This document shows, piece after piece, positions 11,883-48,733 of a stretch of 58,805 nt of DNA. Below the pieces are notes generated by a model. The model was given only the letters and a program-made list of their open reading frames with translations. It ran no database searches and was not told where the DNA came from. Numbering within the stretch: the stretch's first letter is position 1; the number at the start of each line of letters is the position of its first letter. The position numbers were made by a program, and so were the translations under genes. The stretch is from Syntrophomonas sp. UBA5288 (GTDB lineage: Bacteria; Bacillota; Syntrophomonadia; Syntrophomonadales; Syntrophomonadaceae), in NCBI GenBank assembly GCA_002408445.1, contig DHSK01000062.1:15689-74493 (forward strand), written 5' to 3'.

Positions 11883-13310
11883 TTGAAAGAAAGACTTGCA
11901 TGTAAAACACTTATGATTAGCAATATGACCTGCAGCAGCTGTGAAATGCGAATCGAAAACAAACTTGGCAAGATGGATGGTATTGTTAACATAAGAGCTC
12001 AATTCAGCACATCCCGGGTGGATGTTACTTATGATGCCAATATCGTTGGGCTTGATGCCATTATTCAAGCCATAGAAAAGCTAGGCTATTCGGTTATGAA
12101 TAAACCGGCCGCCAGCCAAGCTGGCAATAAGTCCAATGATAAGTTTACTATTAACCAGCTATTGGGAATAGGGATAATTGTGTTGGCGTTCTACGTGATA
12201 ATCAATAATACTGTGGGGTTTAACTTCATACCCGACATCAATCAAAACATGGGTTATGGGATACTGTTTATTATTGGTTTGATTACTTCGCTGCATTGTA
12301 TGGCTATGTGTGGCGGAATAAACCTTCCCCAATGTATATCCTATAAAATTGATCCGGACAACTTAACCAGAGTGGCAAAACTCAAACCAAGTCTTATGTA
12401 TAATTCCGGCAGGGTAATATCTTACACGCTGATTGGTGGTATGGCAGGTGCTTTAGGCTCGGCAGTAAGTTTTTCCGGTACGGCCAAAGGAACGGTAGCT
12501 ATTATTTCTGGTATATTCATGGTAATAATGGGACTGAACATGTTAAACATGTTTCCCTGGCTGCGCAGATTTAATCCCAAAATGCCCAGGATATTTGGCA
12601 ATAGAATATTAAATAATAATGGTAGGCATGGTCCCTTTTATATTGGCCTGTTAAACGGTTTAATGCCCTGCGGACCCTTACAGGCTATGCAGTTATATGC
12701 TTTAGGAACCGGCAGCTTTTTCGCAGGTGCCTTATCCATGTTTGTGTTTAGCGTGGGCACGGTGCCTTTAATGTTTGGTTTCGGAGCTATCAGTTCATTT
12801 TTAAGCAGCAAGTTTACTCACCGGATGATGAAAGCCAGTGCTGTCCTGGTTATGGTATTAGGGGTCATCATGGTAAGCAGAGGCTTAAGCTTATCTGGTA
12901 TTGCCTATGCGAAACCATCTATTGCAGACTCTGCTGCTTCCGGCAGTGTAGCCAAAATTGCAGGTAATGTGCAGGTGGTCAGCACCAGCTTGGACGGAGG
13001 CAGGTATAAACCAATAATTGTACAAAAGGGTATTCCTGTGCAATGGACCATAAAAGCGCAAGACCAGGATATAAACGGATGCAATGAAACCATGGTGATT
13101 CCTATGTATAATGTAGAGAAACAACTAGTCAGTGGTGACAATGTAATAGAATTTACTCCCGACCGGGAAGGAAGCATTCCCTACACTTGTTGGATGGGAA
13201 TGATCAGTAGTAATATTCAGGTAGTTGACGATATCAGCCAGGTTTCGCAAAGTGATATCAGCAAATTTTCCCAAGGTTCAGCCGGAGCCGGTCCCTCATG
13301 TTGCCAATGA
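11883..13310 (+). CDS. Heavy-metal-associated (HMA) domain fused to a DsbD/TauE-like polytopic membrane domain and a C-terminal soluble beta-rich domain
   Basis: N-terminal MTCSSCEMRIE HMA motif. Multiple TM helices carry CMAMCGG and MPCGP motifs. The C-terminus ends in PSCCQ. TTG start (an alternative ATG lies 10 codons in). It sits directly upstream of copA. Confidence 0.6.
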   Translation: MKERLACKTLMISNMTCSSCEMRIENKLGKMDGIVNIRAQFSTSRVDVTYDANIVGLDAIIQAIEKLGYSVMNKPAASQAGNKSNDKFTINQLLGIGIIVLAFYVIINNTVGFNFIPDINQNMGYGILFIIGLITSLHCMAMCGGINLPQCISYKIDPDNLTRVAKLKPSLMYNSGRVISYTLIGGMAGALGSAVSFSGTAKGTVAIISGIFMVIMGLNMLNMFPWLRRFNPKMPRIFGNRILNNNGRHGPFYIGLLNGLMPCGPLQAMQLYALGTGSFFAGALSMFVFSVGTVPLMFGFGAISSFLSSKFTHRMMKASAVLVMVLGVIMVSRGLSLSGIAYAKPSIADSAASGSVAKIAGNVQVVSTSLDGGRYKPIIVQKGIPVQWTIKAQDQDINGCNETMVIPMYNVEKQLVSGDNVIEFTPDREGSIPYTCWMGMISSNIQVVDDISQVSQSDISKFSQGSAGAGPSCCQ

Positions 13311-13342
13311 TAGCAACCCATCTTAAATAGGAGGTAATCACC

Positions 13343-16087
13343 ATGATGCGCAAGGAATCAATAAAAATATCAGGTATGAGCTGTGCAGCCTGCGCTAACA
13401 GGATAGAAAAGGGATTAAACAAGCTTGAGGGAGTTAACCAGGCCAATGTAAATCTGGCGGTGGAAAAAGCCACCGTTGACTTTGATGATAGGCTTACTAA
13501 TCCGGATAAATTTGAAGAAATTATAAAAAAGCTGGGTTATGGGGTCATTAAAGAGACTCCGGCCGGGGAAAACCAGGTGGAACTTAAGATTACCGGTATG
13601 TCCTGTGCAGCCTGTTCCGCCAAAATTGAGAAGAGCCTTAACAAAATGGACGGGGTTGACCAGGCCGCAGTTAACCTGACCACCGAACGGGCCCGTGTAA
13701 AATACGACGTTTCCCGGGTTAAGGTATCCGAAATGATCAGGACTATCCAGGCTTTAGGTTATGAGGCGGAAAAGGCCGAGGATATTAGCCGCGATCAGGA
13801 GCAGGAACAGAGGCAGAAGGAAATTAGGCAACTCAGAATGACGCTGATTATCTCCGCCGTATTGAGTGCACCTTTGCTGCTGGCTATGATTTTAAGCGTA
13901 TTCCACGTTGAAAAATCGTGGATAGCCGTGCTGCACAATCCGTATTTCCAGTTGGCCATTGCTACCCCCATACAGTTTGGAATTGGTTATCGATTCTATA
14001 AACATGCTTATTTTGCCCTGAGGTCCAAAAGCGCCAACATGGATGTTTTGATTGCCATGGGAACCTCAGCCGCGTATTTCTTTAGTGTATACAACTTGTT
14101 CTTTGAGCAGGTTCCGGCCGGTATGATGAAAGACCTTTATTTTGAGGCCGCCGCCATTATCATAACGCTCATACTGTTGGGTAAATATCTGGAAGCAGTA
14201 GCCAAGGGAAGAACTTCCGAGGCTATTAAAAAGCTCATGAGTTTGCAGGCTAAAACCGCCCGGGTAATTAGGAAGGGAGTAGAGGAGGACATTCCTATTG
14301 AGGAAGTTGAACTGGGAGATATAGTTGTGGTAAGGCCGGGTGAGAAAGTGCCGGTCGACGGCAGAATCACGGAAGGGAACTCCGCCCTGGATGAAGCCAT
14401 GCTTACCGGAGAGAGCCTGCCGGTTGATAAAAAGTCGGGTGACTCAGTATTTGGTGCTACTATAAATAAGTTTGGTACTTTTAAATTCGAGGTTACCAAA
14501 GTGGGCAGGGATACTGCCCTGTCGCAAATCATCAGAATGGTGGAAGAAGCCCAGGGCTCTAAAGCACCCATACAGAAAATTGCCGATCAGGTGGCAGGAG
14601 TATTTGTACCGGCGGTACTGGTAATTGCTTTGGTAACATTTTTAGCCTGGTTCCTGACCGGTGCGGGCATAAACAAAGCATTGATCAGCGCGGTGGCCGT
14701 TCTGGTTATAGCCTGTCCGTGTGCACTGGGATTAGCTACACCGACGGCTATTATGGTGGGAACGGGAAAAGGTGCTGAAAGTGGCATTCTTATCAAAGGC
14801 GGGGAGCACCTGGAGATGGCATATAAGTTAAACGCGGTAGTGCTTGATAAGACCGGAACCATTACCAGAGGGGAACCGGAGGTAACTGATGTATTGTCGT
14901 TAAATAGCTTGACCGAGGACGAGATTCTTAAGACAGCAGCCATAAGTGAGAAAAGTTCTGAACATCCTCTGGGAGTTGCCATATATGAAAGAGGTAAAAA
15001 GAAATGGGAAAGTTTGCCGGACCCCGATAAATTTGAGGCTATTCCCGGCAGAGGAATAATGGCCGTAGTTGATGACAGAGAAATTTATATCGGCACCAGA
15101 AAATTAATGAATGAAAAATCTATTGCTACGGGCAATATAGAAGCAACTATTGCCCGGCTGGAAGATGAAGGTAAAACCGCCATGCTCATGGCGACAGACA
15201 ATAACCTGGAAGCGGTACTGGCGGTTGCCGATACCTTAAAAGAAAATTCCCGGGAAGCCATAGCGGACTTGCAGCAAATGGGTATTGAGGTTTATATGAT
15301 AACCGGCGACAATCAAAGGACTGCGAATGCTATTGCCAAACAGGTGGGTATCACCAATGTCCTGGCCGAAGTCCTGCCGGAAAACAAGGCCGAAGAGGTA
15401 GAAAAACTTAAGGCGCAGGGTAAAATTGTGGCTATGGTGGGAGATGGAATTAACGATGCTCCCGCCCTGGCGACGGCAGATATCGGTATGGCTATAGGAA
15501 CCGGAACCGATATTGCCATGGAAGCTGCGGATATTACCTTAATGCGGGGTGATTTAAGGACTATTGCTGCTGCCATAAGGCTTTCCCGCAAGACTATAAA
15601 TAAAATTAAGCAAAATTTGTTTTGGGCTTTTATTTACAATATTATAGGTATTCCATTTGCAGCTTTAGGCTACTTAAGCCCGATAATAGCCGGTGCTGCT
15701 ATGGCATTTAGTTCTGTTTCCGTTGTTACCAATTCTTTAAGTTTGAAGCGCTATAATCCGAGTAAGAGCGATTTTAGGTTTAATGGTGCCAGAGAATGGG
15801 AAAACCAGAAATGGATTTCTAATAAATCTGAAGCAGTGTGTGAAAAACCATATTCGCAAAAAGGAGATGTAATGATGAGCAGTGAAACCAAGGTATTAAA
15901 TGTAGAAGGAATGTCTTGCAGCCATTGTGTCCATTCAGTAAAAACCGCGCTAGGTTCTCTAAACGGAGTAAGCAAGGTGGATGTGGATCTGGCCGGTAAA
16001 AAGGTAACTGTGGTCTATGATAAAGACCAGGTTCAGTTAAAAGCTATAACGGACTCCATTGAAAACGCCGGCTATGATGTAGTTTAA
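13343..16087 (+). CDS. copA: Copper-translocating P1B-type ATPase with two N-terminal HMA domains and an extra in-frame C-terminal CopZ-like HMA domain
   Basis: GMSCAAC twice, CPC ([12 protein letters not shown]), [13 protein letters not shown]. The C-terminal 70 aa carry GMSCSHC. Confidence 0.92.
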
Positions 16088-16153
16088 TTCCAATTACCCC
16101 CATGCCCGGAGGACACAACCATGTATGGAAATTAAGAATTATGAATTAATATA

Positions 16154-16178
16154 GAGAAGCTGACGCTTCTCATTATTC
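16154..16178 (+). terminator. Possible terminator after copA
   Basis: GAGAAGC-tgac-GCTTCTC followed by ATTATT. A second hairpin, GGGTGAGC/GCTCACCC, lies at 16193-16215. Confidence 0.4.
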
Positions 16179-16253
16179 CAAGAAAGGATTAAGGGTGAGC
16201 TTTACCGGCTCACCCTAATATCCCAAGCTTATATTTCCTGGGGAGATTATTTT

Positions 16254-16955
16254 ATGAATAAACATATTAAATCGATTCTGGTAGTTGATGATGAGGCCAA
16301 AATTGTTGAAGTAATCAAGTCATATCTGGAAGCCGGCGGTTATCAAGTTTATACAGCATCAGACGGCCAAGGTGCTCTGGACATATTTGATAATATTCAG
16401 CCTTCCCTGATTATATTAGATTTAATGCTGCCTGATATAAGCGGGGAAGAGATTTGCCGCCGTTTGCGTACCAAGTCGCGGGTACCGATCATCATGCTCA
16501 CAGCCAAAATTGAAGAAGAGGATATACTTACCGGCCTTGATATAGGTGCTGATGACTATGTAACCAAACCCTTCAGTCCTCGTCAATTGGTAGCCCGCGT
16601 TGCGGCTTTATTGAGAAGAGCCGAGGAAGGCGCGATCCCCCTGGTCCGGGTAATATCTTTTTTTAACAGCGATTTGGTAATAGACTTTCAAAGCTATGAA
16701 GTTAAAAAAAACGGAAAAATAGTAAACCTGACCCCCAACGAATTCAAAATGCTGGGTGCCTTGCTAAAATATCCGCAAAAGGTATTTACCCGGGAGGAAT
16801 TAATTAATATTGTTATAGGTGAAGATTTCGAAGGGTATGATCGAATTATTGATACCCATATTAAAAATTTGCGGCAAAAAATTGAAACCGATTCGAAAAA
16901 TCCTATCTATATTTTAACTGTGCACGGCATCGGTTACAAATTTGGCGGTGAGTGA
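16254..16955 (+). CDS. OmpR-family response regulator
   Basis: Receiver domain (VVDDE, ILDLMLPD, KP) plus a winged-helix C-terminus (VHGIGYKF). Confidence 0.9.
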   Translation: MNKHIKSILVVDDEAKIVEVIKSYLEAGGYQVYTASDGQGALDIFDNIQPSLIILDLMLPDISGEEICRRLRTKSRVPIIMLTAKIEEEDILTGLDIGADDYVTKPFSPRQLVARVAALLRRAEEGAIPLVRVISFFNSDLVIDFQSYEVKKNGKIVNLTPNEFKMLGALLKYPQKVFTREELINIVIGEDFEGYDRIIDTHIKNLRQKIETDSKNPIYILTVHGIGYKFGGE

Positions 16956-18381
16956 CCTGAAAAAATATAAATTGCGAACCAGACTATCCCTAGCCTATAT
17001 TTTTCTAGCGTTATTTTTGGTAGCTCTTATCAGTATTCTTTCCAATGTGTTTTTGGAAAAACACTTCCAGGATTATATTATTAAACAACAAGCAACCAAA
17101 AATATGGATATTGCCAGCTTGATAAGTCAGCAATACAACGATGCGGATAATAGCTGGAGAAAAACGGTAGTGGAAAATATTGGAATTAATGCTCTGGAGC
17201 AGGGTTTGATCGTGAAAGTCAAAGACAAGCCAGGGAATATAATTTGGGATGCTACAGTTCACAACAGCGGACTTTGCAACCAGATGATTACTCATATGTC
17301 ACAAAATATGGCCAGCCGATACCCCCGTTTTGCCGGCGGATATAAAGTTAACAGCTACCCGCTGAAACATGGTGCAAAATTGGTAGGTAATGTGGAAATT
17401 GGATATTACGGGCCTTTTTATTACAATGACAATGATCTGGCGTTTATTAATGCCCTCAATAAAATACTGGGCATGGCGGCAACCTTTTCCTTATTATTGG
17501 CATTGCTATTGGGGGCATTGACCGCTAAACGATTCAGTGCACCAATATCTAGTGCAGTTGAAGCAGCCCGTGATATTAGCCGAGGTCATTATAACCACCG
17601 GATTACGGATATATCCAACACTACCGAGATAGATGAGCTTACCTCCACAGTTAATGACCTGGCCGAAGGCCTGGGCAAGCAGGAAAAACTGAGACGGCGC
17701 CTGACTGCTAACGTAGCCCATGAGCTGAGGACTCCGCTGGCTACCCTGCAGAGTCATATGGAAGCTATGATTGATGGTATATGGGAGCCTGACAGCTCCA
17801 GACTAAAAAGCTGTCATGAAGAGATCATGAGACTTAACAGACTGGTGGGAGATTTAGAGAACCTGGCCCGCTATGAAAGCGAAGATCCGGTTATTAGAAG
17901 AGAAAACTTTGATCTTTCTGAATTAACCCGGCACATTATAAAAAATTATGAGGCGGAATTTGCCAATAAGGATATTGTCCTTGATTTTCAGGGAGGAGTT
18001 AGTCCGGTACATGCGGATCGTGACAAGATAAGTCAGGTGATCGTCAATTTGCTGTCTAATGCCTTGAAGTATACAGCGGCGGGGGGAAGTGTGATAATAA
18101 CCGTGGCTCATGATCAGGCCCAGGCAATTCTAAAAATAAGGGATAGAGGTATAGGTATATCATCTGAAGATCTGGAACATATCTTTGAACGCCTTTACCG
18201 GGTTGATAAATCACGTTCCCGCGAAAGCGGTGGTTCCGGAATTGGGCTGGCTATTGTCAAAGCCATCATTGATGCCCATGGAGGAAGGATAAGTGTCAGC
18301 AGCATTATTAATAAAGGGACAGAATTTACCATAACCTTGCCGGATTCGCATCAACTACCGGCAAGTATTTCGGAGAATTAA
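16942..18381 (+). CDS. Membrane sensor histidine kinase (HAMP-HisKA-HATPase), partner of the OmpR regulator. It may be metal-responsive, judging from context only.
   Basis: H-box AHELRTPL, N-box NLLSNALKY, G-boxes DRGIGI and GGSGIGLAIV. Two TM segments. Confidence 0.9.
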   Translation: MAVSDLKKYKLRTRLSLAYIFLALFLVALISILSNVFLEKHFQDYIIKQQATKNMDIASLISQQYNDADNSWRKTVVENIGINALEQGLIVKVKDKPGNIIWDATVHNSGLCNQMITHMSQNMASRYPRFAGGYKVNSYPLKHGAKLVGNVEIGYYGPFYYNDNDLAFINALNKILGMAATFSLLLALLLGALTAKRFSAPISSAVEAARDISRGHYNHRITDISNTTEIDELTSTVNDLAEGLGKQEKLRRRLTANVAHELRTPLATLQSHMEAMIDGIWEPDSSRLKSCHEEIMRLNRLVGDLENLARYESEDPVIRRENFDLSELTRHIIKNYEAEFANKDIVLDFQGGVSPVHADRDKISQVIVNLLSNALKYTAAGGSVIITVAHDQAQAILKIRDRGIGISSEDLEHIFERLYRVDKSRSRESGGSGIGLAIVKAIIDAHGGRISVSSIINKGTEFTITLPDSHQLPASISEN

Positions 18382-18845: not shown

Positions 18846-19261
18846 CCAGTTTTCTTCCTGCAATAAGTAACAAAGCAAAGAAACATATATGGCAGGAAAT
18901 CAAAGGTTGGAGGCTGCTATGGATGACAAATAAGGAATTAACGGAAATAGCAGAGAAATACAATCCTGTGATAGGGGGCTGGCTTAATTATTATGGAAAA
19001 TACGGAAGAGCAGAATTATCCAAAGTATTAGACAGCGTCAATCGACATCTATGCCATTGGATAAGAAGGAAATACAAAAGATACAAACATAAACCGTACC
19101 AAGCCAGATGCCTCTTGAAAAAGATCAGTTTGGGAAACCGAGATCTATTTGCACATTGGAAAGTAGGAATATTACCATCGGCTGGATAATAGGAGCCGTA
19201 TGACATGAGAGTGTCACGTACGGTTCTGTGAGAGGCCGAGGGTGAAACTCCCTCGGTCTAC
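18846..19261 (+). mobile_element. 3' fragment of a group II intron: the C-terminal maturase (X/GIIM) remnant plus ribozyme domains V and VI
   Basis: Maturase motif NPVIGGWLNYYGKYG...HWIRRKY. Canonical 34-nt domain V GAGCCGTATGACATGAGAGTGTCACGTACGGTTC (19193-19226). A domain VI hairpin CCGAGGG/CCCTCGG ends ...GGTCTAC. Confidence 0.8.
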
Positions 19262-20247
19262 TCGACTTCGCAACAAGCAACCGGAAGTAAGCTATGAATT
19301 TATCAAGGAACACAGCTCCGTGTTTCCGGTTGAGAAGATGTGCCAAGTTCTAGAAGTATCGCGGAGCGGCTATTATGATTGGAAAGACAGACTCCCAAGC
19401 AAACGGGAGCTTGAGAACCAAAAAATACTTAAAATTGCCCGAAAAAGTTACGATGAATGTCTTGGTATGTGTGGTCTGGACAAAATTCTTGCTGATGTAA
19501 GGGAAAAGTTTCCCAACTGTAGCCGTAAGAGGCTTTATGAAATTCAGAAGAAGAACCAGCTATATGCTAAACGCAAAAGGAAATTCAAAGCCACAACGAA
19601 TTCGAATCATAAGCTTCCAGTAGCAGAAAACATTTTAAAGCAGAACTTTACGACTGATAGACCGGCTGCCGTATGGGTAACGGATATCAGCTACGTATAC
19701 ACCTATGAAGGCTGGCTGTACCTGGCTACCGTAAAGGATATATTCACCAAGGAAATAGTGGGCTGGGCAACAGACAACAACATGAGAACTGAGCTTTGTA
19801 TCAAAGCCCTAGAAAATGCTGTAAGAAGGCATAACCCGCCCAGGGGAGCCATTCACCATTCCGATAGAGGCGTGCAATACTGCAGTAAAGAATACCAGGC
19901 GACTCTAAAGAAATATGGTATGATTTGCAGCATGAGCCGGAAGGGCAACTGCTATGATAATGCCTGTGCGGAGACATTTTTCAGCACGATTAAATGTGAG
20001 ATGCTTTACCATAAACGCTATATAACAAGGGAGCAGGCTCGCCAGGACATATTCTGGTATATAGAAGTATTCTACAATCGTAAAAGGCGGCACCAAGCCC
20101 TGGGATACATATCTCCAGCTGCTTTTAAACAAAGATACTTGGCGCAAAAAGCGGCTTAATAAAATTGGAAATATAAGATCTTGAGCAATACTGTGAATTA
20201 GTGAGAAAACCTAACTCTAGACTGGCTGTTTTATCGGGAAAACCTCA
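19262..20247 (+). mobile_element. IS3-family insertion sequence remnant. OrfB (DDE/rve transposase) is intact, but orfA and the left end are missing.
   Basis: The ORF 19242-20159 contains [20 protein letters not shown] (HTH_21) and the rve core (WVTDISYV...HHSDRGVQY...[11 protein letters not shown]). Its GTG start lies inside intron domain VI, so it is not a native start. The candidate right end ...GGGAAAACCTCA (TG/CA type) sits near 20247. Confidence 0.75.
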
Positions 20248-42043: not shown

Positions 42044-42125
42044 TGGGGCACCCAGAAATCGATAAAATAGTATAGTATTTAACATAGCATTTAAGTTGGG
42101 AAAAGAATAGGGAATGAGGAGTATT

Positions 42126-42902
42126 ATGCAAGTACATATACTGGCCAGCGGTAGTACGGGCAATTCAGTTTTGCTGCAGCTGGGAGGCAAAAACATACTA
42201 ATTGATGCCGGCATTAGTGCCCGCCGCATAGAACAGGGCCTGGCCGGGGTGGGAGTTAAAGCGGGTGAGTTGGATGGTGTTTTAATTACCCATGAACATA
42301 TCGACCATATTAAAGGATTGGATGTATTCATCCGGCGGCATAAAATACCGGTTTATACCCGGCCGGGAACATGGGAAGGGATTCCCTGCCGGTCTAAACT
42401 GCCTCCCCAATGCTGCTGTGATATTTACGAGAATATTGACATAGGTCCGGTTCGAATTGAAACCTTTCCCATATCGCATGATGCCAGTGACCCGGTAGGC
42501 TTTTGTTTCTACTGGAGTAAAATCAAATGGACTCTGGCTACCGACCTGGGCGTTATTACCCCGGAAGTTAAGCAGGCCCTGGCTCATGCCAGCCTGGCAA
42601 TCTTGGAATCCAACCATGATATGGAGATGCTGCAGACCGGTCCTTACCCCTCTTTCTTAAAACAGCGCATTAAAGGGATCAAGGGCCATCTATCCAATCT
42701 GGATGCGGCCCGCCTGCTGGCTTATGCCGGTCAACAGGGGCCTATGCAGGTATTCCTGGCCCATCTGAGCAAGCAAAATAACACACCGTCATTAGCCGAA
42801 AGGACGGTTTCCGGGTTTCTAACTGAACAGGGTTATGAAGTGGGAAGGGATATAGTACTTAATCGCACCCATGCCGACCGAACCGCCAGTTGTATTTTCT
42901 AA
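42126..42902 (+). CDS. MBL-fold metallo-hydrolase (YycJ/WalJ-like)
   Basis: ASGSTGNS and HEHIDH motifs. The start is placed at the ATG after GAGGAG; the ORF track starts at 42114. Confidence 0.8.
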   Translation: MQVHILASGSTGNSVLLQLGGKNILIDAGISARRIEQGLAGVGVKAGELDGVLITHEHIDHIKGLDVFIRRHKIPVYTRPGTWEGIPCRSKLPPQCCCDIYENIDIGPVRIETFPISHDASDPVGFCFYWSKIKWTLATDLGVITPEVKQALAHASLAILESNHDMEMLQTGPYPSFLKQRIKGIKGHLSNLDAARLLAYAGQQGPMQVFLAHLSKQNNTPSLAERTVSGFLTEQGYEVGRDIVLNRTHADRTASCIF

Positions 42903-42928: not shown

Positions 42929-42987
42929 GAGGACGGTCCCTTTTTCATATCCGAGATATGACCAAAGGACCGTCCTCGTCTTATTTA
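42929..42987 (+). terminator. Possible terminator after the MBL hydrolase gene
   Basis: 11-bp stem GAGGACGGTCC/GGACCGTCCTC with a long 27-nt loop, followed by GTCTTATTTA. Confidence 0.5.
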
Positions 42988-43089
42988 TCGGTTATTCGCG
43001 CCCAAAATCCGGTCAAATACACAAAATAGCAGGAAACAGGAAAATGTTACAGAAATAGGTAAAGAAAATTATTTGGTGGAGCTGATCAA

Positions 43090-43569
43090 ATGTATCCCAT
43101 ACCCTGGTATGTGGCGTTATTAGTATCTGTACCCCAAACTTTTCTGATATTGCTGATAGGTTTTAAATTATATGATATTGACATGCCACTTCAGACTGGC
43201 CTCATGGTCTCGGTATTTATGGGTTTTCTCGCTTATATAGTACGGCTTTTTCCCATGCCGTTCGGACTTCATACCCTTATTCAAATTACTATGCTGGTTG
43301 TATTAATAAGCCTGATGACCAATATTAAGTGGTGGCAAGCGCTGATAGCAAATTTAACCGGCGTGATGATAACGGGAATATTTGAAAGCACCTTAATGCC
43401 CTTTTTCCTGATGTTGACCGGTAAAACCATTTCAGATTTTGAAGTTCAGCCCTGGCTTAATGTTTTATCTTTTCTGCCTCTGGCGCTACTCCTTATATTT
43501 TTTTACCTGGGTATGGCCAGGTATGACCTGGTGGTTTATCAATTCAAAGAGGATAAGTATGGTTTATGA
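43090..43569 (+). CDS. Polytopic membrane protein resembling the N-terminal sensor module of AgrC-type receptors
   Basis: 159 aa with about 5 TM helices and no soluble domain. Its stop overlaps (ATGA) the start of the downstream kinase gene. Confidence 0.5.
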   Translation: MYPIPWYVALLVSVPQTFLILLIGFKLYDIDMPLQTGLMVSVFMGFLAYIVRLFPMPFGLHTLIQITMLVVLISLMTNIKWWQALIANLTGVMITGIFESTLMPFFLMLTGKTISDFEVQPWLNVLSFLPLALLLIFFYLGMARYDLVVYQFKEDKYGL

Positions 43570-44438
43570 ATAAGAGCAGTTTGTTTGTGATTTTAACTAT
43601 ATTGATGGAAACCCTTTTCATTGCCGTTTTTAACCAGAAATTATTGATATCGAATGATTTACAAAGTTTAAAAAGCTACCTGCCTTTTGCCAATGTGGTG
43701 GCTGTAGTACTGGCGGTACTGGCTCTTTTTTCTATCAAGGAAATGGAAGGAAAAACCCGCCGTGAAACCGAGATGCAGGTTTTGAAGTCCAATCTTGCAC
43801 AGGTGGAGGATCTGTTAAATTCTTTGCAGTTGCAAAAACATGAACATACCAGGCATATTCAGACTTTGCAGGCTATGCTCTATCTGGGAGAAATAGAGAA
43901 GGCTACTGAATATATCGAAGGGATAAGTGAGAGCTATTGGCACGAAGTTGATATAGTACAGGTAGGGCACCCTGCCGTAACCGCCTTACTTAATAGTAAG
44001 AAACAGGTAGCGCAGAGCAGGGGAGTGGAGTTTGATTTTAGTGTAAAATGCAATCTGGCCGGTATGCGCATAAGTGCCTGGGACTTTTGCAGCATTCTGG
44101 GGAACCTGGTCGATAATGCTCTGGAAGCCGTAATAACCGAGCCGGATAGTAAGGTGGTAACGGTTGAAATAAAAGCAGAAGAGGAATTTTTTGCTATTTA
44201 CGTTTATAATACCGGACCCCGGATAACCAGATTACAGCAAAACAATCTGTTCAAACCCGGCTACACCACTAAAAAGTCGGATGGAAGAGGTTATGGATTA
44301 TATGTGGTTAAAAAGCTGGTAGACAGCTATGGTGGTACAATTGAGGTTATTTCTGATCGGCGTACCACGTTTATTATATATTTGCCTAAATCGGGGGGGA
44401 TGAAAATTGATAAAAAGTCTGTCCCAGCATGCAGCTGA
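43566..44438 (+). CDS. Sensor histidine kinase (2 TM, SpoOB-type helical H-box, GHKL ATPase), the putative AIP receptor kinase
   Basis: H-box LQKHEHTRHIQTLQAMLYLGEIEKATEYI, N-box LGNLVDNALEA, G-box GRGYGLYVV. Confidence 0.8.
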   Translation: MNKSSLFVILTILMETLFIAVFNQKLLISNDLQSLKSYLPFANVVAVVLAVLALFSIKEMEGKTRRETEMQVLKSNLAQVEDLLNSLQLQKHEHTRHIQTLQAMLYLGEIEKATEYIEGISESYWHEVDIVQVGHPAVTALLNSKKQVAQSRGVEFDFSVKCNLAGMRISAWDFCSILGNLVDNALEAVITEPDSKVVTVEIKAEEEFFAIYVYNTGPRITRLQQNNLFKPGYTTKKSDGRGYGLYVVKKLVDSYGGTIEVISDRRTTFIIYLPKSGGMKIDKKSVPACS

Positions 44439-45033
44439 TATTCTAACCGATGTATCGGAAACGGAATGGGAAAATGAGATACTAGCCTATGGTCTGGAAA
44501 TAATTATCGGCTGTCTGCTCAATTTGGTATTTATAATAATTGCGGCTGTTTGGCTGGATACGTTGTGGAGCACGATGTTATGTTTGATTTCCTATATTTC
44601 TTTTCGGCATCTGGGTGGTGGCGTACATCTGGAAACCTGGACGCGCTGTTTATGCACCGGTGTGATTTTAATGGTTGGATTAGGATGGATCGCAGACCAG
44701 GCTCTACCTTCATTAATAATAAAAGGGGTATTTCTTCTGGCGTTCAGCCTGGGAGGTTGGGCAACCTGCAAATGGGTGCCGGCAACCTGCAAAAAGGAGA
44801 TAAAAGATGAGAAGGTAAGAAAACAACAAAAAATAAGAACATTACAGGTATTGGGTTTATGGTTGGTGGCTTGCGTAGCGCTATTTTATTTGGGTTATAA
44901 CAAATTTGCCCTTGCTCTTAGTTTCGGAGTACTGGCAAGCTCATTTCTTATTACACCTGGGGGGTATTGGGTCATGCAGACCCTTGATAATATCCTTAAT
45001 TTAATTTTTAAAAGGAGGGTGTCACATGTTTAA
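44407..45033 (+). CDS. agrB: Accessory gene regulator B (AgrB) peptidase/processing membrane protein
   Basis: YGLEIIIG..., SFRHLGGGVHLETWTRCLC (conserved His/Cys region), and multiple TM helices. TTG start. Confidence 0.8.
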   Translation: MIKSLSQHAADILTDVSETEWENEILAYGLEIIIGCLLNLVFIIIAAVWLDTLWSTMLCLISYISFRHLGGGVHLETWTRCLCTGVILMVGLGWIADQALPSLIIKGVFLLAFSLGGWATCKWVPATCKKEIKDEKVRKQQKIRTLQVLGLWLVACVALFYLGYNKFALALSFGVLASSFLITPGGYWVMQTLDNILNLIFKRRVSHV

Positions 45034-45175
45034 GAGGTTCAGAGGTAGGGTAATGTCAGGTATGGTGTCGTTGGTTGCGCTGGTGGCGGTATCCGGCGGA
45101 GTGAGTCCATGTTGTTTTTTCATCATTCATGAACCCGAAATACCGGAAGCACTCAAAAACATGGCTAGGAGCTAA
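45026..45175 (+). CDS. agrD: AgrD-like autoinducing-peptide precursor (49 aa), absent from the supplied ORF track
   Basis: My translation is MFKRFRGRVMSGMVSLVALVAVSGGVSPCCFFIIHEPEIPEALKNMARS. The SD AAAGGAGGG ends 6 nt upstream of the ATG. The ATG overlaps the agrB stop, and the TAA overlaps the ATG of the LytTR regulator (TAATG). Cys plus a 4-residue ring candidate CFFII is followed by the acidic tail HEPEIPEAL. Confidence 0.7.
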   Translation: MFKRFRGRVMSGMVSLVALVAVSGGVSPCCFFIIHEPEIPEALKNMARS

Positions 45176-45909
45176 TGGCAAAAATATTATTACTTGAAGA
45201 TGAAGATTATACTCGTAAATTTCTGAAGAAACTAATCGAGCAAAGTGAACTGGTTGAGTGGGTATTTGACGCCGCCAGCGGCAGGGAAGCCCTTGACCTA
45301 TTTGCATTACATAAGCCTGATATTGCGATAATGGATATAGAACTTGGGGCAGATCAAGAGTTGAACGGGATTGAGGTGGCCAGGCAAATATACAGCCTGG
45401 CCCCCCAGACCTACTTTGTGTTTTTAACGGGATATTCCCGTTATGCTATCGATTCTTTTTGCGTCCATCCTTATGATTACATTTTAAAACCCGTAAAACA
45501 GAATAGAGTACGGGAAGTTATTGATATCCTGGCCGCTAAAGTCCAAATGCGTTTAAACGATGAAAAAATAGTAATTAAGCTTAAAAAAGAAACTCTGTTG
45601 TTACAGCCAGGAGACATTATTTTCGTTGAGAAGCGGGAACGTAATATTATATTACACACCAAATTCGGGGTTTATGAATTAAACCATACCCTGGGGGAAA
45701 TGAGTTCCATACTGGGTAACCGGTTTATTCGAGTTCATAAATCATTTATTGTGAATCCTGACAAAATCGCTTCTATTCAGGAAGTGAGTGAACGTTCCTA
45801 CGAAATTACATTTGATGATTATGCTGCAACCGCTCAGATGAGCCGTTATCGGTTCAACGAGTTATATGCCTATTTGACTATGCGTAAAAAGAAAAAAACA
45901 GAAAACTAA
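45175..45909 (+). CDS. LytTR-family response regulator (AgrA-like)
   Basis: Receiver domain (LLLEDE, IMDIEL, KP) and LytTR domain (FIRVHKSFIVN). Confidence 0.9.
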   Translation: MAKILLLEDEDYTRKFLKKLIEQSELVEWVFDAASGREALDLFALHKPDIAIMDIELGADQELNGIEVARQIYSLAPQTYFVFLTGYSRYAIDSFCVHPYDYILKPVKQNRVREVIDILAAKVQMRLNDEKIVIKLKKETLLLQPGDIIFVEKRERNIILHTKFGVYELNHTLGEMSSILGNRFIRVHKSFIVNPDKIASIQEVSERSYEITFDDYAATAQMSRYRFNELYAYLTMRKKKKTEN

Positions 45910-45989: not shown

Positions 45990-48296
45990 ATGAGTCAGGA
46001 TAATAATCTGGATTTAAACAGATTGCAGAATACTGACCTGAAGCCCGCAGTGCAGGTTTGGCTGGAGAGTCCTGGAGGTGAACAGCAATATTTCTTTGAT
46101 AATTCCATCACCTGCACGGCGATAATTCAGGAGAAAATAGTGGTTTATTGTTATCCCGAATTAATAACCAATTTAAGCGGGATGGCAAAAAACTATATAA
46201 ATAAAAATTACGAAGAGTTTGTTTATCCGGAAGACATTAAAAAAGTAGATCAATTCTTATATTTCATATATCAAAACAATAGTCCGAAAGATTTACTGCG
46301 TTTCCGGATCTGCGACTGGGAGGGTAACCCTGCATGGGTAGAAATAACCGGACAGCCGATTATCTACCATGGAAAGCCCTCTGCCCTGATAGTGGCAACC
46401 TCAATTACGAACAATATGCGGAAAATTCAGTTTCTGAAAGATTTGACCGAAATATATAGAAACTTTGCCGAACAATCGCCTGATGGCATTGTGGTGCGCC
46501 AGGGAAACCGAATCCTGTATGCTAACTCCAGAGCTGCCGAGCGAAGCGGATTTTCACGGGAAGAGATCAGACAAGTAGATGCATTTGCAGGAGTCGCGGA
46601 GGATGATGTGAATACTGCCCGGGAAATTGCGGCCAAATGGGATACAGGTCAGGCTACACCCTCCTTGGTGGAATTAAGGATGGTGGATGCTGACGGGGAA
46701 GTATTTACCTGCGAGGTGGCTTCTTCCTTTATTAACTATCATGGAGAACCTGCTGTACAGCATACCTTAAGGGATATTAGCTACCGCAAAAAAATACAAA
46801 AGGAATTGCAGTTGCAGGCCAACCTGTTGTCTAATGTCAATGATTGTATAGTTGTTACCGATTCGGATTATCAGATTATCTTCTGGAATCAGGGGGCCGA
46901 AAGGTTATTGGGCCGGAAAGAGGATGAGGTAATAGGACAGAAGCTGGGAACTGTTCTAAATGAAGACTCTTTCGTTGACCAGATTAAGAATGATTTACTT
47001 ATGAACGGGCATTGGGAGGGACAGCGAGAAATAAAGATGACGCCGGAAGGATGCAAAACACTGCAGCTATCGGTAACCACAATCAATGATGATTGTGATA
47101 ATACCAGTTTAGTGCTCATAGCCCGGGATATAACGGAATTGCTGGAATCCCAGCGCAGAGAACGTGAGGCCAATCAGGCCAAGAGCGAATTTTTGGCTCG
47201 CTTGAGCCACGAAATGCGTACCCCTTTGGTCGGAATAGTTGGTTATTGTGAATTATTAAGATCGGTAAGTGAAGGCCCTCCTAATCAGGAAGGTCTGGCT
47301 ACCATGGAATACTGTGCCAGACAGTTATTGGATCTGGCCAATAATATGCTGGATTTATCCAAAATTGAAGCACGCCAGGTGGAAATAAAACTGGAATCAG
47401 TCGATCTGTATAATTTAATCAATTATACCGTGAATTCTTTCTATCCCAATATTAGTGCCAATGTCGAGCTTTCCGTTCATATTTCTTCTTCTGTACCGAG
47501 AAATGTGATCGGTGACAATGCTAAAATCAAGCAAATTATTGCCAATCTACTGAGCAATGCTTTCAAATTCACCCGCCGGGGTTACGTAAAGGTCAAGGTG
47601 GACCTGGCTAATAGTTTTAAAGTGTCGGAGGGGATGTACCCGATAAGAATAGCGATTATCGATACTGGAATCGGAATTAAAGAGACGGATAGAATCAAAA
47701 TATTTGAACCATTTGTGCATGATGTGATTGCTGCGGATGGTGAAGATGGTACAGGTCTGGGGCTAGCCATTTGCAGGCAACTGGTCGAATTGATGGGGGG
47801 AAGTATATGGTGCAAAGCCAACCCTGAGGGGGGTTCGGAATTTGGCTTTGTTTTACCTCTTAAAGCGTCGGCGGCGCCACCGGCGCCGGTTGAATCCGGT
47901 CAAGCTATTACTAATATGCCTGTTCCGGACGGTTTGGAAGTTTTGCTGGCAGAAGATATTAGTGTCAACCGCAAGCTGATCACTCTTATGCTGGAAAAGC
48001 TCGGGTGTGAAGTAGTGGCAGTAAGTAATGGTGAACAATGTGTTAATATGCTGGACGAATATAAACCTGATATTATTCTGATGGATATGCAAATGCCGGT
48101 GATGGACGGATACAGTGCTACCCGAATTATAAAAGGAAGATCATCCCTGGCAGCTATCCCGGTAATTGCACTGACGGCCTACGCCATGACCGAGGATGTT
48201 GATAAATGCCAGGAAGCAGGCTGCGACTATTACCTGAGTAAGCCGTTTACCAATGAACAACTGGCCAGCGCTTTAAAGCAATGCTCGAATGTTTGA
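45990..48296 (+). CDS. Hybrid sensor histidine kinase (PAS repeats, HisKA, HATPase, C-terminal receiver)
   Basis: H-box SHEMRTPL, NLLSNAFKFT, GTGLGLAICRQLVELMGG, and the receiver segment ILMDMQMPVMDG...LSKPF. Confidence 0.9.
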   Translation: MSQDNNLDLNRLQNTDLKPAVQVWLESPGGEQQYFFDNSITCTAIIQEKIVVYCYPELITNLSGMAKNYINKNYEEFVYPEDIKKVDQFLYFIYQNNSPKDLLRFRICDWEGNPAWVEITGQPIIYHGKPSALIVATSITNNMRKIQFLKDLTEIYRNFAEQSPDGIVVRQGNRILYANSRAAERSGFSREEIRQVDAFAGVAEDDVNTAREIAAKWDTGQATPSLVELRMVDADGEVFTCEVASSFINYHGEPAVQHTLRDISYRKKIQKELQLQANLLSNVNDCIVVTDSDYQIIFWNQGAERLLGRKEDEVIGQKLGTVLNEDSFVDQIKNDLLMNGHWEGQREIKMTPEGCKTLQLSVTTINDDCDNTSLVLIARDITELLESQRREREANQAKSEFLARLSHEMRTPLVGIVGYCELLRSVSEGPPNQEGLATMEYCARQLLDLANNMLDLSKIEARQVEIKLESVDLYNLINYTVNSFYPNISANVELSVHISSSVPRNVIGDNAKIKQIIANLLSNAFKFTRRGYVKVKVDLANSFKVSEGMYPIRIAIIDTGIGIKETDRIKIFEPFVHDVIAADGEDGTGLGLAICRQLVELMGGSIWCKANPEGGSEFGFVLPLKASAAPPAPVESGQAITNMPVPDGLEVLLAEDISVNRKLITLMLEKLGCEVVAVSNGEQCVNMLDEYKPDIILMDMQMPVMDGYSATRIIKGRSSLAAIPVIALTAYAMTEDVDKCQEAGCDYYLSKPFTNEQLASALKQCSNV

Positions 48297-48364
48297 CAAA
48301 CAGAGCAGGATTGCATATTCTTAAGATGAACATATGTTCATAAATTTTGAGAGTAGGATGCAAC

Positions 48365-48733
48365 ATGCCCAGAAAACCGCGCTGCCGAAAAGTAGAATCA
48401 GAACCGGAAGTAAGATATTTTAAACCACAGGGAATACCTGTGGCCGATCTGGAAGAAGTTGTATTGAAAGTTGAAGAGTTGGAAGCGGTCAGGTTAAAAG
48501 ACCTGATGAACCTGGAACAGGAGGATTGCGCCCGGATGATGCGCGTATCCCGACCAACTTTTCAGCGTATCCTTGCCTCAGCCCATGCCGGTATTGCCGA
48601 TGCCTTGATAAATGGCAAGGCCCTGCGTATAGAGGGGGGCAATTACTGCCTGGGTGCAGGTTTCTGCCGTAAACAGGGCCGTCGCCTGAAACAAAACGAA
48701 ACCTGCGAGGTAATGTCTGAGAAAACAGAATAA
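48365..48733 (+). CDS. DUF134/UPF0251-family putative DNA-binding protein
   Basis: N-terminal MPRKPRCRKV....YFKPQGIP and an HTH-like MMRVSRPTFQRIL. Confidence 0.7.
   Translation: MPRKPRCRKVESEPEVRYFKPQGIPVADLEEVVLKVEELEAVRLKDLMNLEQEDCARMMRVSRPTFQRILASAHAGIADALINGKALRIEGGNYCLGAGFCRKQGRRLKQNETCEVMSEKTE

Follow-up and report, generated by a model that had tools for sequence, protein, structure and literature searches.

A probable agr-type peptide quorum-sensing operon with a receptor split over two genes in Syntrophomonas sp. UBA5288

The agr quorum-sensing system of Staphylococcus aureus is encoded in the order agrB-agrD-agrC-agrA, and the staphylococcal specificity groups are defined by a hypervariable region that spans agrB, agrD, and the sensor part of agrC (PMC10482373). 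Its receptor AgrC is a single chain with six predicted membrane helices; no full-length structure of AgrC is available, and the part that binds the peptide is still unknown even in S. aureus (PMC10482373). Here, we describe an agr-type locus in a 58,805-nt stretch of DNA from Syntrophomonas sp. UBA5288 (assembly GCA_002408445.1, contig DHSK01000062.1, positions 15,689 to 74,493 of the forward strand), hereafter the window; all coordinates refer to this whole stretch and its forward strand. Like the S. aureus system, the locus encodes an AgrB with a His/Cys dyad, an AgrD, a membrane histidine kinase, and a LytTR response regulator, and its AgrD shares the leader, the five-residue ring (predicted here), and the acidic Pro-containing tail of the staphylococcal precursor. 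The likeness extends to paired 9-bp sites with a 21-nt period and to a processing enzyme, a peptide, and a sensor that outpace the kinase core and the regulator in divergence. The gene order, however, is sensor-kinase-agrB-agrD-regulator, the receptor consists of two polypeptides with five and two helices, and the window proteins all score below the cutoffs of the staphylococcal AgrD, AgrC, and AgrA models, the kinase preferring CitA/DcuS models.

Comparable precursors are found in clostridia and Listeria; for clostridia, non-canonical agr gene orders and incomplete agr loci have already been documented (PMC8748961). The AgrDs of Clostridium thermocellum (Clo1313_2818), Listeria monocytogenes, Ruminiclostridium cellulolyticum (Rc-AIP1), and Clostridium acetobutylicum share with the window AgrD the same boundary, in which a nucleophile and four further residues are followed by Y/H-E-P-x-x-P. 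Five-residue rings occur in C. thermocellum and Listeria, and both Cys and Ser serve as nucleophiles in the family. By analogy with the clostridial autoinducing peptides (AIPs), the window signal is likely to be tailless and to rearrange to a lactam. These systems have a single-chain AgrC or no linked receptor, the agrD of C. thermocellum being an orphan (PMC5322536), whereas the window locus has a linked, two-piece receptor, a new ring sequence (CFFII), and a tail that opens with His instead of Tyr. Unlike the clostridial and listerial hosts, the window host belongs to an uncultured Bacillota lineage, and the nearest named homologues of its kinase come from Peptococcaceae-type genera.

Two further groups of kinases are relevant for comparison. 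The CitA/DcuS kinases (HPK5-type) provide the best-scoring relative of the window kinase in the dimerization and phosphotransfer (DHp) and ATPase core, but they are partnered with regulators of the CitB/DcuR type, while the window kinase is partnered with a LytTR regulator and has no periplasmic PAS/Cache sensor. Split histidine kinases in general are already known: according to titles and abstracts, Hik36-Hik43 of Synechocystis and a theoretical treatment (PMC3591291) concern one kinase's functions distributed over two associating proteins, and none of the cases named in those titles and abstracts is of the AgrC type or split within the membrane sensor, in contrast to the break between helices 5 and 6 in the window. 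Full-text literature searches gave no description of a split AgrC-type receptor and, as the preliminary description of this DNA had supposed for sulfate-reducer-like Peptococcaceae, no agr study in the Desulfotomaculum/Pelotomaculum genera, although absence there is no proof in either case. The two-gene AgrC-type receptor is widespread and apparently undescribed.

We read the locus as a complete, autoregulated agr-type peptide quorum-sensing operon with a two-gene receptor and put the probability of this reading, which is built on sequence and models, at roughly 0.7. The most unusual feature is the pair formed by the first two genes, a membrane protein and a histidine kinase, which the preliminary description had listed separately and which we take to be the split form of one receptor. 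The gene order given in that description (membrane protein, kinase, agrB, agrD, LytTR regulator, PAS hybrid kinase) agrees with the sequence and the domain assignments. The core features are as follows.

43090..43569 (+): proposed sensor-subunit gene, encoding a 159-aa membrane protein with five helices
43566..44438 (+): histidine kinase gene, 290 aa, with SPOB_a, HATPase_c, and HATPase_c_5 domains (Pfam)
44407..45033 (+): agrB, 208 aa, TTG start (PF04647)
45011..45019 (+): Shine-Dalgarno sequence AAAGGAGGG of agrD, read from the sequence, within the 3' end of agrB
45026..45175 (+): agrD, encoding a 49-aa precursor (TIGR04223)
45113..45127 (+): codons 30-34 of agrD (C-F-F-I-I), the predicted ring
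45175..45909 (+): gene of an AgrA-like LytTR response regulator, 244 aa

The 159-aa protein contains five hydrophobic helices, and the 290-aa kinase carries two at its N-terminus. Neither Pfam nor NCBIfam offered a family for the 159-aa protein or 38 of its relatives, the scan of these 39 sequences yielding scattered chance matches, and the relatives bear no public name other than "hypothetical protein". An exhaustive phmmer search with the 159-aa protein retrieved 213 relatives. Most of them are 150-170 aa long, but the best 150 include about 25 with lengths of 439-483 aa. In these natural fusions (~445 aa), residues 1-152 match the 159-aa protein, while residues ~163-437 match the 290-aa kinase at 42-47% identity and contain the same SPOB_a and GHKL domains. 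Because the two halves of the fusions match both window genes, the pair equals one natural single-chain kinase that is split between helices 5 and 6. One of the fusions, P0018, is collinear with the S. aureus AgrC model from position 2 to position 395 of 414, with a score of 47.5 bits.

An AlphaFold model of the window pair joined head to tail, for which 26 natural fusions provided the alignment, contains 5+2 membrane helices with a mean predicted local distance difference test score (pLDDT) of 83.6. The five-helix part reaches a pLDDT of 84-96, the value falls to ~60 exactly at the junction, and helix seven runs straight into the DHp helix bearing the invariant His (H92). In the model, the sensor ends and the kinase begins in the cytoplasm, so the topology would be continuous across the split. 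The only outside loop of the kinase comprises ~10-16 residues. The 159-aa and 290-aa proteins would be expected to assemble physically and their two parts to pack against each other, and we propose that the 159-aa protein is the ligand-binding subunit of a split AgrC-like receptor. When fusions, sensor modules, and kinases were aligned together with MAFFT, the modules were placed over the kinase half, and this alignment was discarded.

The divergence of the genes points in the same direction. Compared with two orthologues, the sensor protein is 73-79% identical, AgrB 70-73%, and AgrD 65-84%, whereas the kinase reaches 87-88% (88-95% in its two helices), the regulator 81-82%, and the flanking genes 86-89%. 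The faster divergence of sensor, AgrB, and AgrD resembles that of the staphylococcal hypervariable region and suggests that the 159-aa subunit carries the ligand specificity.

The distribution of the arrangement was surveyed in 80 metagenome loci drawn with a kinase alignment and analyzed with purpose-built hidden Markov models (HMMs). The receptor clade comprises 47 of the 80 loci, which form 34 groups at 95% kinase identity: 25 with a split receptor, four with a fused one, and five that are cut or unclear. Both agrB and agrD accompany the receptor in 21 of the 22 assessable split loci, a LytTR regulator follows agrD in 14 of 19, and the 4-nt overlap is the commonest junction between sensor and kinase. 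The remaining 33 loci contain ~555-aa CitA-like kinases (L143-L174) with a different regulator and without sensor module, agrB, or agrD, and they serve as a natural negative control. The split is also present in the orthologous loci L001 and L002, Candidatus (Ca.) Syntrophocurvum alkaliphilum, Dehalobacterium formicoaceticum, Pelotomaculum schinkii, Desulfofarcimen acetoxidans, and several metagenome-assembled genomes (MAGs), with the same gene order in Ca. Syntrophocurvum alkaliphilum, P. schinkii, and D. acetoxidans; its recurrence across these genomes indicates that it is no artefact of the window's genome. A scan of a genome collection with a tight sensor-module alignment (A3) found no relative, the genome of the window and its near kin being apparently missing from that collection or masked in it.

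Several loci depart from this arrangement. Two of them (L006:3213-7186 and L009:1558-5575) hold two diverged sensor genes (~26-29% mutual identity) and two agrB-agrD pairs with a single short kinase and no regulator nearby, and the arrangement is common to both genomes, between which the sensor modules are 54-63% identical. These two loci suggest a modular receptor, in which swappable, ligand-specific five-helix subunits dock on a common two-helix kinase, a design that we put forward tentatively and regard as possible rather than probable. At L111:3458-5630 and L117:3509-5597, a fused receptor is directly followed by a LytTR regulator without agrB or agrD, giving orphan receptor pairs. The 313-aa protein P0029 joins the five-helix module and the two kinase helices directly to a receiver domain, with neither a kinase core nor agrB or agrD present, and seems to have arisen by deletion or misassembly. 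In a Bacillota MAG (L008:5001-5500), the sensor gene ends at 121 aa and its conserved PWLN motif continues in another frame, owing to either a frameshift or an error in sequencing; in the public gene table, agrB of this locus (6345-6989) is not called. The apparent relative P0031 (1481 aa) is spurious, being a translated tandem repeat.

The signal precursor itself could be identified with standard tools. The 49-codon open reading frame (ORF) at 45026-45175 is present exactly as the preliminary description had claimed, its ATG lies 6 nt 3' of AAAGGAGGG and overlaps the end of agrB, its stop codon forms the TAATG junction with the regulator gene, and the translation given there, MFKRFRGRVMSGMVSLVALVAVSGGVSPCCFFIIHEPEIPEALKNMARS, is identical letter for letter. 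The product matches NCBIfam TIGR04223 with 40.7 bits against a cutoff of 19 (E 1.9e-10), residues 10-45 aligning with profile positions 4-38 of 38. It is the sole AgrD-profile match among the 617 window ORFs of at least 25 aa, a scan that serves as a check for false positives only, the window AgrD being among the sequences from which the profile was built. TIGR04223 is also matched by all 10 small ORFs next to agrB in related loci. The protein has the usual layout: residues 1-28 form a basic hydrophobic leader, the core follows, and H35-S49 make up the tail.

As expected for a real gene, the small ORF is conserved in orthologous loci of the same gene order, where the reading frame is intact at 84% and 65% identity. 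In a codon comparison, the ratio of nonsynonymous to synonymous substitution (dN/dS) is 0.15-0.22 for the whole gene and 0.05-0.10 for core and tail, against 0.09-0.26 for neighbouring genes. The ORF is a genuine AgrD and, as such, an ordinary new member of a known family. It had been described as unannotated, which does not hold: the exact peptide is already called as a protein in NCBI, NCBI nr, IMG, ENA, and Logan and is found in 102 blocks of a public metagenome collection, and the claim arose from the 60-aa floor of the ORF list used at that time.

The two adjacent Cys residues of the precursor had left the register of the ring ambiguous, and comparison with related AgrDs settles it in favour of CFFII, since only the second Cys is conserved and the spacing agrees with a characterized clostridial product. 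The orthologue P0015 reads ...GSRCLFIIHEPEVP, with Arg at the position of the first Cys, and the C29 column contains R, N, Y, and other residues across related AgrDs. These align on [C/S]-x4-[Y/H]-E-P-x-x-P-x-x-L, and a Cys or Ser stands five residues before [Y/H]-E-P-x-x-P in 10 of 10 AgrDs of the first set and in 22 of 25 of the survey (32 of 35 overall). The window AgrD follows this pattern with C30-x4 followed by H35-E-P-E-I-P40. The C. thermocellum AIP was identified by liquid chromatography-tandem mass spectrometry as a five-residue lactone of S25-F29, cleaved before Y30, with a conserved Pro at position 35 (PMC5322536), and a listerial AIP has the five-residue ring CFMFV (PMC4916163). 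The spacing from C30 to H35 equals that of the verified C. thermocellum AIP, and H35 aligns with the Tyr that opens its tail. The nucleophile is thus predicted to be C30, and AgrB is predicted to cleave after I34, yielding the five-residue ring CFFII; the proposed division into CFFII and HEPEIPEAL agrees with this pattern.

The preliminary description had further expected a short N-terminal tail and a thiolactone, which may not hold for the mature signal. The clostridial AIPs detected so far lack an exocyclic tail, and the Cys-linked ones had rearranged to all-amide cyclopeptides (PMC8251862). Whether the final product is a thiolactone or a lactam would depend on the site of leader removal. 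The [M+H]+ values computed for CFFII cycles with zero to four tail residues are 624.3214, 727.3306, 824.3834, 911.4154, and 1010.4838, respectively.

AgrB matches PF04647 with 107.9 bits (cutoff 23) over residues 20-182. Its H74 and C81 show the H-x6-C spacing, within the motif GGGVHLETWTRC, and are spaced as in the catalytic dyad His77/Cys84 of S. aureus AgrB (PMC10482373). As a membrane peptidase and cyclase, it should cut the C-terminal tail of AgrD and close the ring. The gene is damaged in two related loci. At L104:5152-6810, agrB is broken at profile position 103 by an insertion sequence element with a 317-aa integrase-type transposase, and at L093:4854-5867 of D. acetoxidans, the first 94 residues of AgrB are left while sensor, kinase, agrD, and regulator are apparently intact. 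Both strains may be listeners to the signal that have stopped producing it.

The kinase core is of the SpoOB/CitA type and not that of a classic AgrC, in line with the H-box noted in the preliminary description. It scores 33.1 bits on the Pfam SPOB_a domain (cutoff 28.1), carries a GHKL ATPase domain, and shares its H92 with all of 20 relatives compared. Among NCBIfam models, it scores best on NF008298 of the DcuS/MalK family (111.6 bits, residues 65-275 on profile positions 311-525 of 529), of which the cutoff of 520 is not reached, only the DHp and ATPase parts being matched and the periplasmic PAS/Cache domain being absent; the corresponding score on the AgrC equivalog model is 42.9 bits. 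The receptor is not a single-polypeptide AgrC of the HPK10 class, and it is linked to agrB and agrD and paired with a LytTR regulator. Having passed neither the AgrC-equivalog nor the CitA/DcuS test, the kinase is placed in an agr context, yet in a clade of its own. Public names in this clade include "CitA", "citrate/malate metabolism kinase", "GHKL domain protein", and "AgrC", and a 98% identical protein is named AgrC in IMG. The nearest named homologues (54-56% identity) come from Peptococcaceae MAGs, Pelotomaculum, and Desulfofarcimen. MetK shares no more than 71% identity with any representative genome, its best matches being spread over several Bacillota families, and allowed no placement; these identities are compatible with the Peptococcaceae affiliation assumed in the preliminary description but do not prove it.

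The regulator contains a Response_reg domain (59.4 bits) and a LytTR domain (71.4 bits) in Pfam. A candidate site for it lies in a conserved block upstream of the sensor gene, and the features around the core genes are as follows.

42929..42977 (+): hairpin (arms of 23 nt) with a T-rich run on its 3' side (inverted repeat search)
42989..43065 (+): highly conserved non-coding block 3' of the hairpin
42989..43018 (+): two direct repeats, CGGTTATTC-N12-CGGTCAAAT, opening the conserved block; candidate regulator site
45990..48296 (+): PAS-PAS hybrid histidine kinase gene, 768 aa (Pfam domains)

The block is ~90% conserved in the orthologous loci L001 and L002, where the proteins are merely 65-89% identical. 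The two repeats lie 21 nt apart from start to start, and their geometry equals the 9 bp + 12 bp + 9 bp arrangement of AgrA sites at the P2 promoter of S. aureus (PMC10482373). Of 30 related loci, 10 carry the pattern GGTY-N16-18-GGTY on the coding strand in front of the sensor gene, where 0.68 would be expected; none of 1000 shuffles reached 10, five other spacings gave 0-2, and the opposite strand gave 2. Significance applies only to this relaxed pattern at fixed spacing, and a de novo search for 6-mer repeats was not significant, since its highest count, 3-4, did not exceed the maximum of 4 seen in shuffles. The repeats are hence a candidate autoregulatory site of the LytTR regulator. A different version of the site may be present in Ca. 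Syntrophocurvum alkaliphilum (L004:4710-4770), where three tandem 21-nt direct repeats AAAAATAAAAAAGTTGTACAA with a spacing of 20 sit upstream of a perfect 14-bp hairpin and the sensor gene. A motif common to the upstream block and the spacer between the regulator and PAS kinase genes, CAGGAAAC, was dropped, as conservation of the spacer is poor and the single occurrence of the 9-mer is no more than chance would give.

All junctions from the sensor to the regulator gene are overlapping or nearly so. The TGA of the sensor gene and the ATG of the kinase gene, which lie in different frames, overlap by 4 nt (ATGA); the ATG of agrD (45026-45028) lies within the end of agrB, whose TAA occupies 45031-45033, giving an 8-nt overlap; and the TAA of agrD (45173-45175) has one base in common with the ATG of the regulator gene (45175-45177). 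A terminator scan of the forward strand found a sole terminator-like site inside the operon, within agrB and at chance level. The overlapping junctions and the lack of an internal terminator above chance are consistent with a single transcript from sensor to regulator. A scan for consensus promoters gave fewer matches than the shuffle expectation and none at the expected place.

The 5' limit of the operon is probably marked by the hairpin at 42929-42977, a likely terminator of the preceding MBL-fold gene, the stem of which is retained through compensatory changes at L001 and L002. At the other end, the PAS hybrid kinase is found in these close orthologues and absent from the distant loci L004-L009, L093, and L094, and the spacer 5' of its gene is poorly conserved. 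Being conserved in the closest relatives only, it is probably a neighbour outside the core system. The operon is flanked by genes for an MBL-fold hydrolase (42114-42902) and a DUF134 protein (48347-48733). Both are 86-89% identical across orthologous loci, above the agr specificity genes, which suggests that the operon diversified in place and is not a recent insertion.

Elsewhere in the window, the Rfam group II intron model RF00029 matches the 3' catalytic domains at 19191-19266 (+) with 62.2 bits. No reverse-transcriptase ORF lies upstream, and an rve-family integrase gene (ORF 19242-20159) overlaps the match, which is probably an intron remnant beside an insertion sequence. A heavy-metal cluster at 11883-18381 (+) encodes an HMA-DsbD-like membrane protein, a P-type ATPase with three HMA domains, a response regulator, and a HAMP histidine kinase.

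A number of results speak against the operon as reconstructed here. The 159-aa subunit has no significant sequence similarity to the AgrC sensor domain, and on the AgrC model the fusion P0018 scores only ~5 bits above the lone window kinase (47.5 vs 42.9). AgrC was not listed at E<=1e-6 in a search with an artificial concatenation of the two proteins, and S. aureus AgrC has been modelled with six helices, not seven (PMC10482373). A fold search of the PDB returned generic kinase cytoplasmic cores only, with S. aureus AgrC at rank 33. In a sequence comparison of the kinase with the PDB, the match to S. aureus AgrC is confined to the ATPase domain. The equivalog models of the two-component pair are likewise far from being reached: the kinase scores 42.9 bits on the AgrC model NF046015 (cutoff 500), on which the natural fusions score 43-64 bits, and the regulator scores 44.4 bits on the AgrA model NF046049 (cutoff 400), so that by this model it is a LytTR regulator and not an AgrA orthologue. 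In its exact form, the repeat pattern has a single occurrence in the window, which lacks significance by itself. Of the two AgrD profiles named in the preliminary description, TIGR04223 is exceeded, but the staphylococcal PF05931 is not (12.8 bits vs 22.7), with residues 29-44 of the tail only being matched. As for the ring, six-residue forms are known in some clostridia (C. acetobutylicum, R. cellulolyticum), and three related AgrDs have a Lys at the ring position, which means that the five-residue rule is not universal. In these three, at L121 (near 5410-5580), L123 (5245-5376), and L127 (5362-5502), the Lys stands five residues before YEP, and a Ser is found two residues upstream of it, e.g., in SSFKWFIIYEPELP; they would make a seven-residue lactone or an unprecedented Lys-linked lactam.

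Four other explanations have to be considered. The 159-aa protein could be a co-transcribed accessory, acting in export, leader removal, immunity, or kinase modulation, while the two-helix kinase perceives the peptide by itself or by way of the membrane. It is well known from systems such as LiaF and BceAB that accessory membrane proteins can control kinases with intramembrane sensing, the 159-aa protein has neither a recognizable family nor significant similarity to the AgrC sensor, and some loci hold two such genes per single kinase, all of which would suit an accessory. We nevertheless consider it unlikely: in the fusions, the 159-aa module stands exactly N-terminal to the two kinase helices, the junction falls in a cytoplasmic loop with continuous topology, and the two genes are translationally coupled. 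Moreover, the module diverges in step with AgrB and AgrD and the kinase does not, as would be expected of the part that determines specificity, and the kinase has a single outside loop of only ~10-16 residues. That the small ORF arose by chance and the receptor split is an assembly or frameshift artefact is scarcely credible. The ORF is short, and one related MAG (L008) does have a frameshifted sensor gene, but the HMM score over a curated cutoff, the purifying selection, and the same peptide in 102 blocks argue for a gene, and the split recurs in 25 independent groups and several finished genomes.

The split receptor with its cognate peptide also has to be weighed against a different product and a different role. 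Another ring register, with a six-residue CCFFII closed by C29 or a CFFIIH released by AgrB cleavage after H35, is suggested by the two adjacent Cys residues and by the six-residue rings documented in C. acetobutylicum and R. cellulolyticum, yet it is quite improbable, given the Arg in place of C29 in the nearest orthologue and the N, Y, or other residues of distant relatives, the alignment of H35 with the Tyr that opens the cleaved tail in the verified C. thermocellum product, and the occurrence of Cys or Ser at the fifth position ahead of [Y/H]EP, which holds for 32 of the 35 homologues compared. To a similarly low degree, the cyclic peptide may not be mainly a density signal but a growth inhibitor or a means of interspecies interference, with the two-component system serving another input. 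It is reported that the C. thermocellum AIP inhibits growth and that its expression did not track cell density (PMC5322536), and the receptor is kept in loci where agrB was lost (L093, L104) or agrB and agrD are absent (L111, L117). Against this stand the presence of agrB and agrD in 21 of 22 split loci and of the LytTR regulator in 14 of 19, the LytTR-type repeats upstream, and the pattern of co-variation, which is the signature of a self-sensing circuit.

For the preferred reading, that of an autoregulated operon with a two-gene receptor, the following pathway can be proposed, in which we infer the product chemistry, the assembly of the subunits, the identity of the ligand-binding subunit, the binding of the repeats by the regulator, and the controlled targets. 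A promoter just downstream of the two regulator boxes (42989-43018) would drive the operon, and the five genes would be translationally coupled. AgrD would insert into the membrane through its basic hydrophobic leader, and AgrB (H74/C81) would recognize the HEPEIPEAL tail, cut after I34, and move the acyl group to the C30 thiol, forming the five-residue CFFII thiolactone. Some peptidase would then strip the leader, and if no exocyclic residue is left, the thiolactone should turn spontaneously into an all-amide cyclopeptide, as in clostridia. The extracellular peptide would be sensed by the two-subunit receptor, in which the five-helix 159-aa protein confers specificity and, together with the 290-aa kinase, forms a 5+2 equivalent of the seven helices of single-chain AgrC-like kinases. 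The kinase would phosphorylate the LytTR regulator, which may bind the paired GGTY repeats and raise transcription of the operon, resulting in positive feedback.

The agrD gene alone is routine, since a standard model recognizes it, and its value lies in a testable, predicted CFFII signal of an uncultured anaerobe common in metagenomes. The wider significance concerns a whole agr clade with a two-piece receptor, found in Pelotomaculum, Desulfofarcimen, Desulfoscipio, Syntrophomonadaceae, and relatives of Dehalobacterium. Its ligand-side piece belongs to an unnamed protein family without a Pfam model, and its kinase piece is annotated variously from "CitA" to "AgrC"; recognizing the pair would correct these annotations. 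The pair would also allow the location of the peptide-binding part of AgrC-type receptors to be studied in a natural system. If the tentative modular reading is true, one kinase could read two different autoinducing peptides, and specificity could evolve or be transferred horizontally while the phosphotransfer core stays untouched, which would be a previously undescribed way to build and diversify peptide quorum-sensing receptors; such a design, if real, appears widespread in syntrophic and sulfate-reducing Bacillota. Because cultured species carry the same locus, recognition of the pair would also make peptide signalling in communities of syntrophs and sulfate reducers accessible to experiments.

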